Sequence record: MH355584.1 | Length of the DNA stretch: 64,000 nucleotides | Strand: one strand, 5' to 3' | DNA from: Escherichia phage vB_EcoM_JB75 | Shown here: piece by piece, positions 4,162-10,460 of the stretch | Numbering within the stretch: position 1 is the stretch's first letter | Layout: every line of letters begins with the position of its first letter | Made by a program: the position numbers and the translations under genes | The notes under the pieces: model-generated | What the model was told of the DNA's origin: nothing | What the model saw: the letters and a program-made list of their open reading frames with translations, nothing else | Databases searched by the model: none

Positions 4162-5490
4162 ATGCAACTGAATAATCGCGATTTAAAAAGTATCATTGAT
4201 AATGAAGCATTGGCTTATGCTATGTACACGGTTGAAAATCGTGCTATCCCAAATATGATTGATGGATTTAAGCCAGTTCAACGATTTGTTATTGCTCGAG
4301 CTCTTGATTTGGCACGAGGAAATAAAGATAAGTTTCACAAACTCGCTTCTATTGCAGGTGGTGTAGCGGACCTTGGATATCACCATGGCGAAAACTCTGC
4401 ACAAGACGCAGGCGCTTTGATGGCTAATACTTGGAATAATAATTTTCCTTTGTTAGATGGTCAAGGAAACTTCGGTTCTCGTACTGTCCAAAAGGCAGCA
4501 GCAAGTCGTTATATTTTTGCTCGTGTAAGTAAAAATTTCTATAACGTATATAAAGATACTGAATATGCTCCGGTACATCAAGATAAAGAACACATTCCGC
4601 CTGCTTTCTATTTGCCTATTATTCCTACTGTTCTTCTTAATGGCGTTTCCGGTATTGCAACTGGTTATGCAACTTACATTCTTCCTCATAGTGTTTCTTC
4701 TGTTAAGAAAGCTGTACTGCAAGCTCTTCAAGGAAAGAAAGTAACTAAACCGAAGGTAGAATTCCCAGAATTTCGTGGTGAAGTCGTTGAGATTGACGGT
4801 CAATATGAAATTCGTGGAACATATAAGTTTACTTCACGAACTCAAATGCATATCACTGAGATTCCGTATAAGTATGATCGTGAAACTTATGTGAGTAAAA
4901 TCTTAGACCCGCTTGAAGATAAAGGCTTCATTACATGGGATGATGCTTGTGGTGAGCATGGCTTTGGCTTCAAAGTTAAATTCCGAAAAGAATACTCTTT
5001 GAGCGATAATGAAGAAGAACGCCATGCAAAAATTATGAAAGACTTCGGGTTGATTGAGCGTCGTTCCCAGAATATTACCGTCATTAATGAGAAAGGAAAG
5101 CTGCAAGTTTACGATAATGTAGTTGATTTAATCAAAGACTTCGTTGAAGTTCGTAAAACTTATGTCCAAAAACGAATTGATAACAAAATCAAAGAAACTG
5201 AATCAGCATTTCGTTTAGCTTTTGCCAAGGCACATTTCATTAAGAAAGTAATTTCAGGTGAAATTGTTGTACAAGGTAAAACTCGCAAAGAACTGACCGA
5301 AGAACTTTCTAAAATTGATATGTATTCTTCTTATGTTGATAAACTAGTTGGAATGAACATTTTTCATATGACTTCCGACGAAGCAAAGAAACTTGCTGAA
5401 GAAGCTAAAGCCAAAAAAGAAGAAAACGAATATTGGAAAACTACTGATGTAGTTACAGAATACACCAAAGATTTAGAGGAAATCAAATGA
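4162..5490 (+). CDS. 52: DNA topoisomerase II medium subunit gp52 (442 aa)
   Basis: 442 aa as in T4 gp52; N-terminal region AYAMYTVENRAIPNMIDGFKPVQRFVI resembles the GyrA/ParC N-terminal motif; adjacent to motA. Confidence 0.85.
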   Translation: MQLNNRDLKSIIDNEALAYAMYTVENRAIPNMIDGFKPVQRFVIARALDLARGNKDKFHKLASIAGGVADLGYHHGENSAQDAGALMANTWNNNFPLLDGQGNFGSRTVQKAAASRYIFARVSKNFYNVYKDTEYAPVHQDKEHIPPAFYLPIIPTVLLNGVSGIATGYATYILPHSVSSVKKAVLQALQGKKVTKPKVEFPEFRGEVVEIDGQYEIRGTYKFTSRTQMHITEIPYKYDRETYVSKILDPLEDKGFITWDDACGEHGFGFKVKFRKEYSLSDNEEERHAKIMKDFGLIERRSQNITVINEKGKLQVYDNVVDLIKDFVEVRKTYVQKRIDNKIKETESAFRLAFAKAHFIKKVISGEIVVQGKTRKELTEELSKIDMYSSYVDKLVGMNIFHMTSDEAKKLAEEAKAKKEENEYWKTTDVVTEYTKDLEEIK

Positions 5491-5636
5491 GTCCATTCAT
5501 TGGTATCACAAGCGCTGCATTAGTATCTGGTGGCATTTTACTGGCGGGTTTAGGTGTTGTTCCTGCCGTAGCAGGAGGTCTTCTTGCGTTCGGAATTCAA
5601 CGTGTTATCATGACAGTTATCACAGTCATGCAGTAA
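5487..5636 (+). CDS. small membrane peptide (49 aa)
   Basis: MSPFIGITSAALVSGGILLAGLGVVPAVAGGLLAFGIQRVIMTVITVMQ; ATGA overlap with the gene 52 stop; followed by a strong terminator. Confidence 0.45.
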   Translation: MSPFIGITSAALVSGGILLAGLGVVPAVAGGLLAFGIQRVIMTVITVMQ

Positions 5637-5640
5637 TTTT

Positions 5641-5670
5641 AGGGAGAGCCTCGGCTCTCCCTTTTTTATT
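5641..5670 (+). terminator. rho-independent terminator after gene 52 and the small ORF
   Basis: AGGGAGAGCCTCGGCTCTCCCT hairpin followed by TTTTTTATT. Confidence 0.8.
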
Positions 5671-5692
5671 TCAAAAATTTTTTCACAAAACG

Positions 5693-5726
5693 GTTTACAA
5701 CCAAAGCATACTGTGGTACTATACAA
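5693..5726 (+). promoter_or_regulatory. early promoter
   Basis: GTTTACAACCAAAGCATACTGTGGTACTATACA; almost identical to the promoter at 22504. Confidence 0.7.
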
Positions 5727-5771
5727 CTATCAAATAAATGAACTGAAACAAACAACCCGGAGATACAAAAA

Positions 5772-5999
5772 ATGAAATTTAAAATCGAAAACGAAATCGT
5801 TAAAGCTAAAAATGCTCTGACTGCTAACAAACTGGTTGTAGATGGTATTGAATATGATATCTGTGGAGTTCGTGAAGAAAAACCTGGTGTTCTGACTTTC
5901 TTCACAATGATTTTTAAATTTAAAGGTGACACAGAATTCAAACAGTTTGATTTTGCCCATGAAGACGAAATCGAAGTTCGTAATCTGAACATTAAGTAA
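5772..5999 (+). CDS. hypothetical early protein (75 aa)
   Basis: ORF preceded by a consensus early promoter and SD-like ccggaga. Confidence 0.6.
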   Translation: MKFKIENEIVKAKNALTANKLVVDGIEYDICGVREEKPGVLTFFTMIFKFKGDTEFKQFDFAHEDEIEVRNLNIK

Positions 6000-6038
6000 G
6001 TACTTTATTAGAGCTCTTGAAAAAGAGTGCAAAAAAGT

Positions 6039-6070
6039 GTTTACTTCTGCTTTAAACATGATACTATAGA
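6039..6070 (+). promoter_or_regulatory. early promoter upstream of motA
   Basis: GTTTAC at 6039 and TACTATAG at 6062. Confidence 0.65.
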
Positions 6071-6104
6071 CCTATCAAATAAATGAACTGAAACGGAGAT
6101 TAAA

Positions 6105-6740
6105 ATGTCTAAAGTAACTTACATCATCAAAGCTTCTAACGATATTCTGAATGAAAAAACTGCTGCGATTTTAATTACCATTGCTAAGAAAGATTTCATT
6201 ACAGCTGCAGAAGTTCGTGAGGTGCATCCAGATTTAGGTAACGCAGTAGTTAATAGTAATATTGGGGTATTGATTAAAAAAGGCCTGGTGGAGAAATCTG
6301 GTGATGGATTAATCATTACTGGTGAAGCTCAGGATATTATTTCAAATGCGGCAACTTTATATGCACAGGAAAATGCTCCTGAACTACTGAAAAAACGAGC
6401 AACTCGTAAAGCTCGTGAGATTACTTCCGATATGGAAGAAGATAAAGACCTTATGCTAAAACTTTTAGATGAAAATGGATTTGTTCTTAAAAAGGTTGAA
6501 ACTTACCGCAGTAACTATCTTGCTATTTTAGAAAAACGCACTCACGGAATTCGTAATTTTGAAATTAATAACAATGGAAATATGCGAATTTTTGGATACA
6601 AAATGATGGAACACCATATTCAGAAATTTACTGATATTGGAATGTCATGTAAAATCGCTAAAAACGGCAATGTGTATCTTGACATTAAACGCTCGGCAGA
6701 AAACATTGAAGCAGTAATCACCGTAGCATCTGAACTGTGA
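6105..6740 (+). CDS. motA: middle-transcription activator MotA (211 aa)
   Basis: 211 aa as in T4 MotA; N-terminus MSKVTYIIKASND matches recalled MotA; early promoter upstream. Confidence 0.88.
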   Translation: MSKVTYIIKASNDILNEKTAAILITIAKKDFITAAEVREVHPDLGNAVVNSNIGVLIKKGLVEKSGDGLIITGEAQDIISNAATLYAQENAPELLKKRATRKAREITSDMEEDKDLMLKLLDENGFVLKKVETYRSNYLAILEKRTHGIRNFEINNNGNMRIFGYKMMEHHIQKFTDIGMSCKIAKNGNVYLDIKRSAENIEAVITVASEL

Positions 6741-6750
6741 GGAATAAATA

Positions 6751-7080
6751 ATGAACAAGTTAGAAATTGTTAATGAACTTCGTCGTTGTGCAGAACCCAC
6801 TCAAGAGGGGTGGGATATCTGGTATCATGGAGCTTATCTTGGAACTATCGTAAAGATTAAGACTGGTAAATACATGATTATTCGTGAAAGTAAAGATGCT
6901 CCAGTAGGTATTCGCAATAATTTTATGGCGGCGATAAGTTCATTTACGGATGCAGCTTACGAAATTTACCTTGCTGATTATAAAGAATTCCAGGAATCTC
7001 AACCAGTTATTCGTTCAATTGGTGTTAACAAAGCTCAACAGAAAACTTTATGGCAACGTATTAAAGGATGGTTTAAATGA
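6751..7080 (+). CDS. hypothetical protein (109 aa)
   Basis: ORF with SD gaggaataaataatg; in the motA-asiA cluster. Confidence 0.55.
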   Translation: MNKLEIVNELRRCAEPTQEGWDIWYHGAYLGTIVKIKTGKYMIIRESKDAPVGIRNNFMAAISSFTDAAYEIYLADYKEFQESQPVIRSIGVNKAQQKTLWQRIKGWFK

Positions 7081-7232
7081 AAACATTTAAAATTGTCGTA
7101 GAATTTTATAACGGCGAAGGTGTAGTCCATCTTAAAGCGGCCAACCAGTTTGATGCGGTAAGAGTATATTGTCAATGCTTTGAAAGTTCTAAACAAGCTA
7201 TAAAAATTAAAAGTGTTGAGGAAACCAAATGA
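7077..7232 (+). CDS. hypothetical small protein (51 aa)
   Basis: ATGA-coupled to the upstream ORF; [24 protein letters not shown]... Confidence 0.4.
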
Positions 7233-7696
7233 AAACATTCAAAGAGCGTCTTGAATTATTAGACCTGGCTTTATTACGTGAAACTCCAGAAAGTCTAGCA
7301 GCTAAATTACAGGCCTATGGCGACTACACCGAATATACGGAAGAGGATGTTTTAGAAGAGGTTCCTGAAATCTGTTGGCAAGTAGCTCATTGGAACAATA
7401 ATGAAAAATATCAACGTCGAATTGTGTGTGCAGCCAACCGCTTTAAGTTAAAAGATGGTGGGACTCTGGTTATTCCTGGTGCTCGTCATTATTCTAAAGA
7501 TATGGCTGAAGTTCTTGACCAGGTAAGTGATAAACTTGTATCAGACCATGTTTGTGGTGAAGACCAAGGATTTATTGACCAGTATAGCAATTACTGGACA
7601 CGTGAAGAAGCAATGATTATTGCAACTTACGCTGGACAAGTGCGTATTGAACGTGGTGGTAGTGAAAAAGAACTTTACTCTGAGGACCTTTACTAA
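7229..7696 (+). CDS. hypothetical protein (155 aa)
   Basis: ORF with SD gaggaaacc; translationally coupled on both sides. Confidence 0.6.
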
Positions 7697-7992
7697 TGAA
7701 TATTAAAAAGTTTCAAATTGATGGAATTAAGAATCAAATCCAGGCGTTGGAATATGCCAATAAAATGATGTCAACTAATTGGGGAATTTATGCCAATGAA
7801 CCGGCATTTCAGTTCTGTGATATGGAATTTACCAAAAAGCTCGTAGGAAAAGATTATGTATGTCCATTTAGTTCTCCAGTAAATGGAATGTTAAAACCTG
7901 CTTTACGCGATCTTTATATTGCGATGAACGAAGAAATGATAAAAGAACTAAAACGTCAACTGAAGGTGATTCAATTTGGCCAGGGAAATTAA
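7696..7992 (+). CDS. hypothetical protein (98 aa)
   Basis: ORF coupled by TAATG overlap to the upstream gene. Confidence 0.55.
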   Translation: MNIKKFQIDGIKNQIQALEYANKMMSTNWGIYANEPAFQFCDMEFTKKLVGKDYVCPFSSPVNGMLKPALRDLYIAMNEEMIKELKRQLKVIQFGQGN

Positions 7993-8200
7993 TTCAAAAT
8001 CCGATTATTTTAATTCTCTCAATGATAAAGATAAAAATCTAATAAGACATTTTATTGTTGAGATGGGATATACTGACACACGTGATTTAAGAGAACATAT
8101 ATTTGAATGTGGTGTAGCTAAAAAGTTTTCATTCACATGCAAGTGTTTGAGAGAGGTAATTCAGCACTATGAACAATTTAGTCGCAAAACACAATTTTAA
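7976..8200 (+). CDS. hypothetical protein (74 aa)
   Basis: ORF overlapping the upstream stop; cysteine-containing (CGVAKKFSFTCKC). Confidence 0.45.
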   Translation: MAREINSKSDYFNSLNDKDKNLIRHFIVEMGYTDTRDLREHIFECGVAKKFSFTCKCLREVIQHYEQFSRKTQF

Positions 8201-8277
8201 TAAAGCTTCTGTCCATAAGGATAAGAAGAAAGCGTTTAAAGAATCTAATCGCAAACAGAAACATAAGGGGAAGGTCT

Positions 8278-8556
8278 ATGATTATTGATTCTCAGTCCGT
8301 GGTTCAATACACAATCAAAATTGATATTCTAGAAAAGCTATATAAGTTTCTACCAAATTTATACCACTCAATTGTTAATGAATTAGTTGAAGAACTGCAT
8401 CTTGAGAATAATGATTTCTTGATTGGAACTTATAAAGACCTCTCAAAAGCAGGATATTTTTACGTAATTCCAGTTCCAGGAAAAAGTATTGATGATGTAT
8501 TAGAAACTATAATGATTTATGTCCATGATTACGAAATTGAAGATTATTTCGAATGA
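8278..8556 (+). CDS. arn: acidic 92 aa protein, possible Arn (anti-McrBC DNA mimic)
   Basis: 92 aa as in T4 Arn, acidic composition, located near asiA as in T4; SD aaggggaagg. Identity rests on length and position only. Confidence 0.4.
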   Translation: MIIDSQSVVQYTIKIDILEKLYKFLPNLYHSIVNELVEELHLENNDFLIGTYKDLSKAGYFYVIPVPGKSIDDVLETIMIYVHDYEIEDYFE

Positions 8557-8705
8557 GTCATAATCTTGAAATGGTAATCGAGCATAATGTAGCTCAGGAA
8601 CGCGAGTCGTTCAAGGAATTCGTAGAAAAAATTTTTCAAGAAAATAACACAGACCAGTTTACAAATCAAGTGTCTGATGATATTATAACAAAGTCAACTA
8701 ATTGA
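8553..8705 (+). CDS. hypothetical small protein (50 aa)
   Basis: ORF overlapping the upstream stop (ATGA). Confidence 0.4.
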   Translation: MSHNLEMVIEHNVAQERESFKEFVEKIFQENNTDQFTNQVSDDIITKSTN

Positions 8706-8717
8706 GTGGTATAGTTA

Positions 8718-8990
8718 ATGAATAAAAATATTGATACAGTTCGTGAAATTATTACTGTTGCGTCTATTTTGATTAAATTTTCCAGAGAAGATATTGTTGA
8801 AAATCGTGCTAATTTTATTGCATTTCTGAATGAGATTGGAGTAACGCATGAAGGTAGAAAGTTAAATCAGAATTCATTCCGTAAAATTGTTTCTGAATTA
8901 ACTCAAGAAGATAAGAAAACCCTCATCGACGAATTCAACGAGGGTTTTGAGAGTGTATATCGATATTTAGAGATGTATACGAACAAATAA
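8718..8990 (+). CDS. asiA: anti-sigma70 factor AsiA (90 aa)
   Basis: 90 aa; MNKNIDTVREIITVASILIKFSREDIVENRANFIAFLNEIGV matches recalled T4 AsiA. Confidence 0.9.
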   Translation: MNKNIDTVREIITVASILIKFSREDIVENRANFIAFLNEIGVTHEGRKLNQNSFRKIVSELTQEDKKTLIDEFNEGFESVYRYLEMYTNK

Positions 8991-9647
8991 TTATTTAGCC
9001 CTTCCTAATATTCTGGCCGCCTGAGCACATATTGATTCAAGGCGGTCATTACTTATATGATCATTTCTATACCAGTACATGGTTATCGTTCCAGCATAGA
9101 TATTATCCAAATTAAAATATGGACAACTGTACATGTAGTTTATTTCGGGAGTAGGCTTTTTAGTTGGTAAAAAAGCAAATTTTGAGTCGGAATAATAATG
9201 ACGTCCATTTAAATGAACTGTATATTCATCCATAGTTTTATCAACAGGATATCCTCCAAGTGATTTTTCAGTTATTGTTGAAGGTAATCTTCCTTCATAT
9301 GCTATAATATCAACAAAATAGTTTAAGTTTTTAGGGCGGAAAGAATACACCGCACTAAAGTCTGCCTCAGATGATATATGAACTATCTGGAGTTGTTCCA
9401 GGGCGACAGATTCAAAGCGTGCATTTCTTTCCTTTTCAATAATTTCACTATATGTTTCATACTTTGATTGCTTATAGTACTCAAAGAAACTATCTCCCCT
9501 ATACCAAACAATCGCCATCATAAATAAAAGAATTACGACAGCTACTCGGGAAGCAAGAACCTTCCCGGTAGCGTTATCTTTGAACAAGCGATCTAGAACA
9601 CCAAACAGAATATCAGAGGGCGAAAATGATATTCTAGGTGCTGCCAT
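8991..9647 (-). CDS. t: holin T (218 aa)
   Basis: 218 aa as in the T4 holin; one N-terminal TM helix (VAVVILLFMMAIVWY) and a large periplasmic domain; follows gene 38 on the same strand. Confidence 0.88.
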   Translation of the reverse strand: MAAPRISFSPSDILFGVLDRLFKDNATGKVLASRVAVVILLFMMAIVWYRGDSFFEYYKQSKYETYSEIIEKERNARFESVALEQLQIVHISSEADFSAVYSFRPKNLNYFVDIIAYEGRLPSTITEKSLGGYPVDKTMDEYTVHLNGRHYYSDSKFAFLPTKKPTPEINYMYSCPYFNLDNIYAGTITMYWYRNDHISNDRLESICAQAARILGRAK

Positions 9648-9677: not shown

Positions 9678-10460
9678 TTATACTCTTGGACCATATATTG
9701 CTCCAACATTTTGCCACGTTGGAGCAGACCCTATGACAGCATAACCAGCAGCGCCGCCATTATATTCAGATCCTTGACCGCGAATATTGCATCTACCTCC
9801 CGCGGAACCTACTTCACCACCGTTTCCACCATTATAGATACCATTCACGGATCCTGAGCCAGGTGCAGAAATAGTACCAGCAGTTGCGCCTGATTGCATA
9901 TCAATAGATCCGCCAGGTGCACCAAACGGACGCCCACCACCACCGCCAAAGGTTAATCTCATTTGTGAAAAAGGAGAATAATATCCGCCGCCACCGCCAC
10001 CGCCACCGCCAGCAATAGCTCCACCATTATTAATTCTTAGTCTCCCACCAATATCGTTTTGAATACAATGACCTCCAGCTGAGCCAGGACTATTGCTACC
10101 ACCATTACCGCCACGTCCATACATCGTTACGCCATGTATATTTAACTGAACATATTCATTTGGTGTATCTCCGTACATGAAGAATAAAGGAACATCTTTA
10201 GAATATGATACTAAATCACCTGTAATATTAAACACTATAGGTGCACTACCTGCCTCAAAACATCTATCTCGGAACCACTGACCATTAAAATTGTGGTTTG
10301 CTGTTACGGTATGAATAATCTCTTTTGAGCGTCCGGCGAATTGGCTCATCCAGCAAGGAACACCCAATCTTAATTGACCAGCCGCTTGACTCATCCATCG
10401 TTGTCCTGTTTCATTTACGGATGAACTACCAATCCAACCAGGAACACCAACTACTGCCAT
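9678..10460 (-). CDS. 38: tail-fibre tip adhesin gp38, T2-type (260 aa)
   Basis: Downstream of gene 37; conserved N-terminus [13 protein letters not shown] followed by glycine-rich blocks ([18 protein letters not shown]) typical of T2-like gp38; much longer than the 183 aa T4-type gp38. Confidence 0.85.
9986..10011 (-). repeat. GC-rich hexamer-like repeat encoding the poly-Gly tract of gp38
   Basis: ccgccgccaccgccaccgccaccgcc on the + strand encodes nine consecutive Gly in gp38. Confidence 0.8.

Follow-up and report, generated by a model that had tools for sequence, protein, structure and literature searches.

The interval between motA and asiA in phage T4 holds the genes arn.4, arn.3, arn.2, arn.1, arn and asiA.1, all on one strand. 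Arn is described in the literature and in annotation as a DNA mimic that inhibits McrBC or binds H-NS, and it is the only product of the operon for which an anti-defence role has been published. The subject of this report is the corresponding block, positions 6751-8705, in a stretch of 64,000 nucleotides (nt) of Escherichia phage vB_EcoM_JB75 (sequence record MH355584.1), which is called the window below. Attention is centred on arn.3, whose product begins with a module that, by profile and pairwise comparison, is homologous to the antitoxin of a bacterial anti-phage system.

That system, PD-T4-9 or CmdTAC, is a toxin-antitoxin-chaperone (TAC) system of P2-like prophages which aborts infection by T-even phages (PMC9519451, PMC11618068). 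The phage capsid protein displaces the SecB-like CmdC, the antitoxin CmdA is degraded by ClpP, and the toxin CmdT ADP-ribosylates mRNA (PMC9519451, PMC11618068). CmdA consists of a pair of N-terminal helices and a disordered tail ending in LAA, and CmdTAC restricts all T-even phages of the BASEL collection except Bas35 and Bas38 (PMC11618068). No natural dedicated phage inhibitor of CmdTAC is reported in the CmdTAC literature searched, nor does a homology between Arn.3 and CmdA appear there. Arn.3 is a concrete candidate for such a counter-measure and, if this is true, would mimic the antitoxin while also being its homolog in sequence. The cluster as a genomic feature is already known and ordinary; the value of its re-examination lies in the Arn.3-CmdA homology and in corrected gene models.

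Phage-encoded substitutes for antitoxins are known from other systems, namely T4 Dmd, which acts against RnlA and LsoA, and pseudo-ToxI and TifA, which act against ToxN. The logic proposed for Arn.3 would be alike, a stable stand-in supplied by the phage for a labile host antitoxin. Dmd is not known to share ancestry with the antitoxins for which it substitutes. The Arn.3 hairpin, by contrast, is a homolog of the antitoxin as far as alignment can tell, and its activity is a proposed one.

Arn.3 and the helical hairpin of CmdA

The arn.3 gene (7229-7696, + strand) encodes a protein of 155 residues with an isoelectric point (pI) of 4.7, which belongs to phrog_839 and is composed of two modules. 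It is 74% identical to T4 Arn.3, and the divergence is concentrated in the N-terminus, where the window carries a different allele. An AlphaFold2 model of the protein has a mean predicted local distance difference test score (pLDDT) of 87.7; helices are predicted at residues 4-16 and 20-29, and residues ~47-155 fold with a pLDDT above 90. The eight proteins of the block were all scanned against Pfam, PHROGs, NCBIfam and PADLOC, and four were used for profile searches of the PDB.

Residues 1-33 (7229-7327, + strand) form the two-helix module and match positions 1-33 of the 77 positions of the PADLOC profile PD-T4-9_B (E=3.3e-6). Thirteen of 48 Arn.3 relatives match this profile, apparently those with an N-terminal extension, with E values down to 2.5e-10; the T4 allele reaches 16 bits only. 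A profile built from Arn.3 N-termini was run against 1.84 billion proteins and gave 39 matches at E<=1e-3, the best at 4e-10. Many of these are proteins of 75-108 residues in which the module occupies residues 1-31 and the tail finishes with AA or LAA. They fit PD-T4-9_B over the full length (E=4e-35), and their genes sit between PD-T4-9_A (CmdT) and PD-T4-9_C (the SecB-like CmdC) in P2-like prophages. When Arn.3 was compared with CmdA by BLASTP, 16 of 33 residues were identical (48%, E=1e-8). A word-index homolog search with the 48-residue N-terminus returned two fragments only. Judged by these matches and by the two-helix hairpins predicted in both proteins, the first 33 residues of Arn.3 share common ancestry with the helical hairpin at the N-terminus of CmdA (CmdTAC/PD-T4-9; Vassallo et al. 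2022, 2024).

A preliminary description of the block had seen no recognisable motifs in its open reading frames (ORFs) other than a possible Arn. This is not borne out: besides the CmdA-like module of Arn.3, there are a DUF7230 match in an ORF that it missed and a predicted helix-turn-helix-like fold in Arn.1, both treated below.

Arn.3 is not a CmdA, only a bearer of the CmdA N-terminal module, because tail, degron and operon context are all missing. The profile match ends at position 33 and a folded core follows, so that Arn.3 is without the disordered chaperone-addiction tail of CmdA. The C-terminus of Arn.3 is SEDLY throughout its family, and there is no AA/LAA degron for ClpXP. Neither a CmdT nor a SecB-like gene lies beside arn.3, its neighbours being orf51/arn.4 and arn.2. 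The hairpin of Arn.3 further differs from CmdA in being fused to a phage domain of 110 residues and in being encoded by a phage that CmdTAC targets.

The core domain (about residues 47-155; 7367-7693, + strand) is widespread in phages, including non-T4 families. Invariant in it are R63, R71, R86-H87-Y88, Q113-G-F-x-D117, R125 and a C-terminal L-x-S-E-D-L-Y, and the invariant polar residues look enzyme-like. No match to the core was found among solved structures. Foldseek gave weak matches to three phage polyvalent proteins (E 2e-3 to 4e-2, 20-25% identity), a likeness to the large polyvalent proteins (Iyer et al. 2017); Arn.3 differs from these in being a small stand-alone protein with no Pfam LPD family match, and the link is weak. 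Apparent long fusions of the core were mostly upstream alternative starts, and no recurrent neighbour gene was found in 36 non-T4 phage loci with the core. One lineage of ~150-kb non-T4 phages (L024, L025, L034, L043, L058) has a recurrent protein of 183-194 residues, encoded ~1.2 kb, or a few genes, downstream of the Arn.3-core homolog, which resembles N-glycosidases of the YbiA/NADAR type by eye only. Enzymes of this type reverse nucleic-acid ADP-ribosylation.

The enzyme-like residues raise a different explanation for the hairpin, which might restrain a phage enzyme, either the Arn.3 core itself, as an intramolecular antitoxin, or one of the T4 ADP-ribosyltransferases Alt, ModA and ModB. 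T-even phages do encode ADP-ribosyltransferases, as is well established. The partner of CmdA, for its part, depends on CmdA to fold and to be stabilised (PMC11618068). However, when the core was considered as a relative of CmdT or of ADP-ribosyltransferases in general, hhalign to CmdT gave a probability of 0.7% and no fold match to an ADP-ribosyltransferase was obtained, and this candidate was rejected. Moreover, the core stands alone in most phages and the hairpin also sits on unrelated carriers. CmdT is an enzyme of the diphtheria-toxin type, and the T4 ADP-ribosyltransferases are of a different class. Restraint of a phage enzyme by the hairpin is improbable on this evidence.

The hairpin module is fused to several phage proteins unrelated to Arn.3, namely the DUF551 protein P0177 and the proteins P0169, P0166 and P0171. 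A variant of Arn.3 with 203 residues (P0001) carries two tandem hairpins before a single core, one of the type found in the window and in Bas36, the other of the T4 type. Fusion to other carriers and tandem duplication would both agree with a binding module that is portable and is selected in an arms race. The hairpin lies inside the DUF551 protein in P0177 (L103 3001-3579) and at the N-terminus of a protein of 130 residues in P0169 (L105 2713-3105); both genes belong to runs of small phage genes that have no relation to T4.

A proposed antitoxin mimic and CmdTAC phenotypes

It is tentatively proposed that the Arn.3 hairpin is an antitoxin mimic which may neutralise CmdT-type toxins, a mechanism that is rated as less likely than not. 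By the time the mimic would act, the capsid protein would have displaced CmdC and ClpXP would have destroyed CmdA. The CmdA-like hairpin, which would resist proteolysis, would then re-bind and neutralise the freed CmdT-type mRNA ADP-ribosyltransferases, and the core would act as its stable carrier, if not as more. A narrow specificity is supposed, by which different hairpin alleles, including tandem pairs, would cover different CmdT or CmdTAC variants, and in further phages the same hairpin would have been joined to different carriers. If true, the mimic alleles would partly explain the escape of Bas35 and Bas38 from the ECOR22 system.

The arn regions of all 13 BASEL T-even phages were compared; 12 such phages are spoken of in PMC11618068, so that one was maybe not tested there. 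The divergent T4-type hairpin is present in eight of the 13, all of them restricted. The CmdA-like hairpin is present in the other five (Bas35, Bas38, Bas36, Bas46 and Bas47), among which Bas35 and Bas38 alone escape; the hairpin of Bas35 is identical to that of Arn.3 in the window. Escape by two of five phages with the CmdA-like hairpin versus none of eight with the T4 type gives a one-sided Fisher p of about 0.13, and the association between hairpin type and escape is suggestive only. A clean genotype-phenotype rule across the 13 phages had to be given up, with Bas36, Bas46 and Bas47 as counter-examples. The 51-residue gene orf51 was also considered as a factor common to the CmdTAC-insensitive phages and was rejected; it is present in Bas35 and missing from Bas38.

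Several points weigh against the mimic. Three of the phages with CmdA-like hairpins (Bas36, Bas46, Bas47) are nevertheless reported as restricted, and PADLOC scores do not follow resistance. T4 itself is restricted, though its hairpin is divergent (16 bits). Escape mutants of T4 mapped to alt.-3 and not to arn.3 in the CmdTAC papers, and Arn.3 is not mentioned in them. An amphipathic hairpin of 33 residues could serve another purpose, and a counter-defence role for the other genes of the cluster would be guilt by association. The view of the CmdA N-terminus as the toxin-binding part comes from general knowledge of TAC systems together with the published description.

The main competing explanation is that the arn block is a conserved set of ordinary accessory genes which, besides arn, have miscellaneous non-defence roles or none, and that the hairpin is a generic two-helix element for stabilisation or oligomerisation, which CmdA and several phage proteins have by common descent and which does not interact with CmdT. 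The three restricted phages that bear a CmdA-like hairpin are in line with this explanation, and so is its occurrence in fusion with several unrelated domains. Furthermore, arn.4, arn.3, arn.2 and orf39 are not hypervariable genes but recur in many genera of T4-like phages, and the other proteins of the block have no PADLOC, Pfam or PDB link. It fits less well that the identity of 48% extends over the whole module and is to the antitoxin of a system that targets these phages, a coincidence that is hard to credit. The core can do without the hairpin, as most of its homologs do, and allelic replacement and tandem duplication of the hairpin are typical of conflict genes. A purely ordinary role is regarded as somewhat unlikely.

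The best-supported reading of the block is that of a translationally coupled cassette for host takeover and counter-defence. The explanation as a whole, an arn operon of coupled genes which would function as a counter-defence cassette and in which Arn.3 would be an antitoxin mimic, is rated slightly better than even. The preliminary description had expected anti-defence genes in such a cluster; for Arn this agrees with the published literature, and for Arn.3 it is inferred from the homology.

The arn operon and its gene models

The source phage is a Tequatrovirus. Over region 6000-9100 of the window, the identity to Shigella phage SfPhi01 is 98.6%; at least 80% of this query is spanned by 476 phage records. 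The flanking genes had been named correctly in the preliminary description: upstream lies motA (6105-6740, + strand, 211 residues), whose product is 97.6% identical to T4 MotA, and downstream asiA (8718-8990, + strand, 90 residues), whose product is 98.9% identical to T4 AsiA. The T4 order motA, arn.4, arn.3, arn.2, arn.1, arn, asiA.1, asiA is kept here on the same strand. Shared position, flanking genes, protein identities of 74-100% and the ArcZ site reported for T2 (see below) identify the block at 6751-8705 as orthologous to the arn operon of T4. It differs from the T4 operon in the different allele at the N-terminus of Arn.3 and in an extra gene for 51 residues between arn.4 and arn.3, which also occurs in RB14, RB32 and Bas35. 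The T4 reference gene models differ as well, with 68 instead of 109 residues for arn.4, 43 instead of 74 for arn.1, and orf39 unannotated.

The full order is arn.4, orf51, arn.3, arn.2, arn.1, orf39, arn and asiA.1, thus eight genes. The preliminary description had listed seven ORFs on one strand, all of which are present, and had missed the eighth, orf39. Six of its seven are T4 arn.4, arn.3, arn.2, arn.1, arn and asiA.1 (74-100% identity), and the seventh is found in RB14/RB32, which is to a large extent the conservation that it had named as an argument against a cluster of this kind. The ORFs are not chance frames, because homologs of all seven occur in many phage genomes.

Upstream of arn.3, arn.4 (6751-7080, + strand) encodes 109 residues (pI 9.2, phrog_1594) with 99% identity to T4, and orf51 (7077-7232, + strand) encodes 51 residues of the RB32ORF252c type (phrog_15636) without a T4 counterpart. 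Downstream of arn.3 follow arn.2 (7696-7992, + strand; 98 residues, 97% identical to T4) and the long form of arn.1 (7976-8200, + strand; 74 residues from a TTG start, 97-100% identical to T4), which would give 45 residues from the ATG at 8063. Next is orf39 (8169-8288, + strand), which encodes 39 residues (pI 10.2, Pfam DUF7230, phrog_1359). The block is completed by arn (8278-8556, + strand; 92 residues, pI 4.4, 96% identical to T4) and asiA.1 (8553-8705, + strand; 50 residues, pI 4.5, 92% identical to T4, phrog_3762). Along the eight genes the junctions are -4, -4, -1, -17, -32, -11 and -4 nt; each is an overlap, and the tight coupling seen earlier is therefore stronger than had been claimed. 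With the long arn.1 and orf39 included, no intergenic DNA is left within the block.

The acidic protein of 92 residues, which had been taken as a possible Arn, can be identified as Arn. It matches PF22134 (DM_Arn) with E=1.9e-52 and 175.9 bits against a gathering cut-off of 26, and PDB entry 3WX4 with E=2e-54. It is the same protein as T4 Arn (3WX4, DM_Arn), from which it differs by four substitutions. For arn.4, arn.2, orf51 and asiA.1, scans of Pfam, NCBIfam and PADLOC gave sub-threshold noise only, and PDB profile searches with arn.4 and arn.2 found no relative.

Comparison with homologs indicates that the reference gene models of the arn operon are wrong in three places, in that arn.4 and arn.1 are truncated and the 39-residue gene is absent. 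T4 DNA encodes the same Arn.4 of 109 residues (99% identity), of which the annotation covers the last 68 only. The long form is covered to at least 80% in 996 phage records, at identities down to 32%, and its upstream ATG is preceded by a GAGG Shine-Dalgarno sequence.

For arn.1 the evidence points to a protein of 74 residues with a TTG start as the real product, not one of 43-45 residues as usually annotated. The TTG at 7976 has a Shine-Dalgarno sequence, GAAGGTGA, 6 nt upstream. Homologs in divergent T4-like phages have 65-75 residues and an ATG at the position equivalent to this TTG, and in them the Met annotated as the start in T4 is replaced by Leu; 41 database homologs are mostly of 65-74 residues. 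The alignment has 24 invariant residues, ten of which fall within the N-terminal extension. In the AlphaFold model of Arn.1 (pLDDT 85), residues 1-29, which include the peptide EINSKSDYFNSLNDK, form a strand and two helices that are packed into the domain with pLDDT 84-91. The predicted fold of this small protein is helix-turn-helix-like, and tri-helical or homeodomain-like DNA-binding domains were considered as its possible structural relatives.

The third correction concerns orf39, which by its distribution is a conserved gene. It matches PF23876 (DUF7230) with E=1.2e-11 and 44.9 bits against a curated cut-off of 27, as do all 21 of its homologs. T4 has the same sequence (100% identity) but no coding sequence annotated for it; in RB51 it is annotated as RB32ORF249c. 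Nearly all T4-like loci retain orf39, together with ATG and Shine-Dalgarno sequence, at identities of 50-100%, and it persists also in those without arn, asiA.1 and arn.1. A likeness by eye to the ribosome-rescue peptide ArfA was discarded; hhalign gave a probability of 0.35% with seven columns aligned, and PF03889 gave no match at E up to 10.

In the alternative the reference annotation is right, so that arn.1 would start at the ATG and encode 43-45 residues, the preceding 70 nt would be non-coding with an RNase E site, and orf39 would be a chance frame. The short arn.1 is indeed the form annotated in T4, in SfPhi01 and in the BASEL Tequatrovirus records, the long form requires a TTG start, and the reporter data of a preprint on T2 fit a regulatory spacer. 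Yet the Mosigvirus records of BASEL annotate a form of 75 residues, and the supposed spacer encodes the ten residues that are invariant across genera. The ATG at the equivalent site in homologs, the Leu in place of the T4 Met, the strong Shine-Dalgarno sequence ahead of the TTG and the folding of the extension into the domain likewise speak for translation of the region. An RNase E site is possible inside a coding region, so that the preprint data are not contradicted. As to orf39, its score exceeds the curated Pfam threshold, and it is retained in loci from which its neighbours are missing. The reference annotation is thus highly improbable as it stands, and the orthology with the arn operon and the corrected models, taken jointly, are regarded as nearly certain. 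The errors bear on proteomics, CRISPR interference (CRISPRi), knockout screens and construct design.

The corrected arn.1 also changes the setting of a published regulatory site. The 10-mer CCAGGGAAAT at 7980-7989 (+ strand) is the exact complement of the seed of the small RNA ArcZ, AUUUCCCUGG, as given by E. coli arcZ from NC_000913. It corresponds to positions +285..+294 of arn.2 and to codons 2-5 of the long arn.1, and it is identical in T4 and Bas35-37. The same site was reported in T2, where it stabilises the transcript (bioRxiv 10.64898/2026.06.19.733364). Given the long arn.1, the 70-nt intergenic region of that preprint is coding sequence, and the ArcZ site is now placed at the translation start of the real arn.1. 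Loci of the Mosigvirus type have a residual complement of 7/10, which overlaps the ribosome-binding site of an arn.1 with ATG start. The mechanism of ArcZ may involve translation of arn.1.

Variability, transcription signals and surroundings

The expectation that the content of the block varies between relatives was confirmed. Matches to the Arn.3 core were found in 1617 phage records, to orf39 in 1218, to arn.4 in 1001, to arn.2 in 947, to arn in 484 (all at >=88% identity) and to orf51 in 85. After the Arn.3 core domain, orf39 is the most widespread gene of the cluster. Among the loci that were fetched, arn and asiA.1 are limited to close relatives of T4, with asiA.1 only where arn is also present; arn.1 has a patchy distribution; and orf51, a rare gene, is placed elsewhere in one lineage.

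orf51 is the sole ORF of the cluster without a T4 counterpart. It is already annotated in RB14/RB32; RB14, RB33, PP01, HP3 and Bas35 are among its carriers, and homologs at 53% identity occur in eight Klebsiella phages. A direct repeat of 15 nt with one mismatch lies at its start, ATGAAAACATTTAAA at 7077-7091, and at the start of arn.3, ATGAAAACATTCAAA at 7229-7243. The two genes share the opening ATGAAAACATTYAAA, and both proteins begin MKTFK. The repeat brackets orf51 and fits a gain or loss of this gene, which could have taken place by recombination.

In Bas38 (MZ501052, 5884-7220), a Tequatrovirus, the start region of arn.1 is of the Mosigvirus type with an ATG start. The length of arn.2, a gene for 99 residues at the position of arn and a gene for 53 residues at the position of asiA.1 are also of the Mosigvirus type, which suggests that the arn operon of Bas38 is a mosaic.

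The preliminary description had called the ORFs early genes, and this label is uncertain. A pattern scan found an early-type promoter (sigma-70/T4; GTTTAC, 17-nt spacer, TACTAT) at 6039-6067 (+ strand), upstream of motA. No terminator-like sites were predicted on the + strand between motA and asiA, and no consensus MotA-box middle promoter was found inside the cluster. Transcription that reads through into the cluster probably starts at this promoter. In the T2 preprint, arn.4-arn is treated as a middle transcript (bioRxiv 10.64898/2026.06.19.733364). A promoter-like site at 8658-8686 (+ strand; TTTACA, 17-nt spacer, TATTAT, with TG), a pattern match only with 10/12 consensus positions, lies ahead of asiA, still within the 3' end of asiA.1. 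Rfam families gave nothing meaningful over 5500-9500.

The holin gene t (8991-9647, - strand) is convergent with asiA. Just downstream of it, inside the coding region of asiA, is a 14-bp stem-loop with a T-rich tail (8916-8948, - strand), which may be the terminator of t.

Upstream of the block, an ORF for 75 residues (5772-5999, + strand) lies between motA.1 (5487-5636) and motA and has no T4 counterpart; the gap between motA.1 and motA in T4 is only about 127 nt. SfPhi01, Bas35 and Bas36 list the ORF as a hypothetical gene, and Bas47 has a gene of 216 nt there. With this ORF, one more variable accessory gene lies close by the cluster.

Gene 38 (9678-10460, - strand) encodes a glycine-rich protein of 260 residues, the equivalent of which is annotated as tail-fibre adhesin in SfPhi01 and in the BASEL records. 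It is not the T4-type gp38 assembly chaperone of 183 residues, and the receptor-recognition module therefore differs from that of T4.

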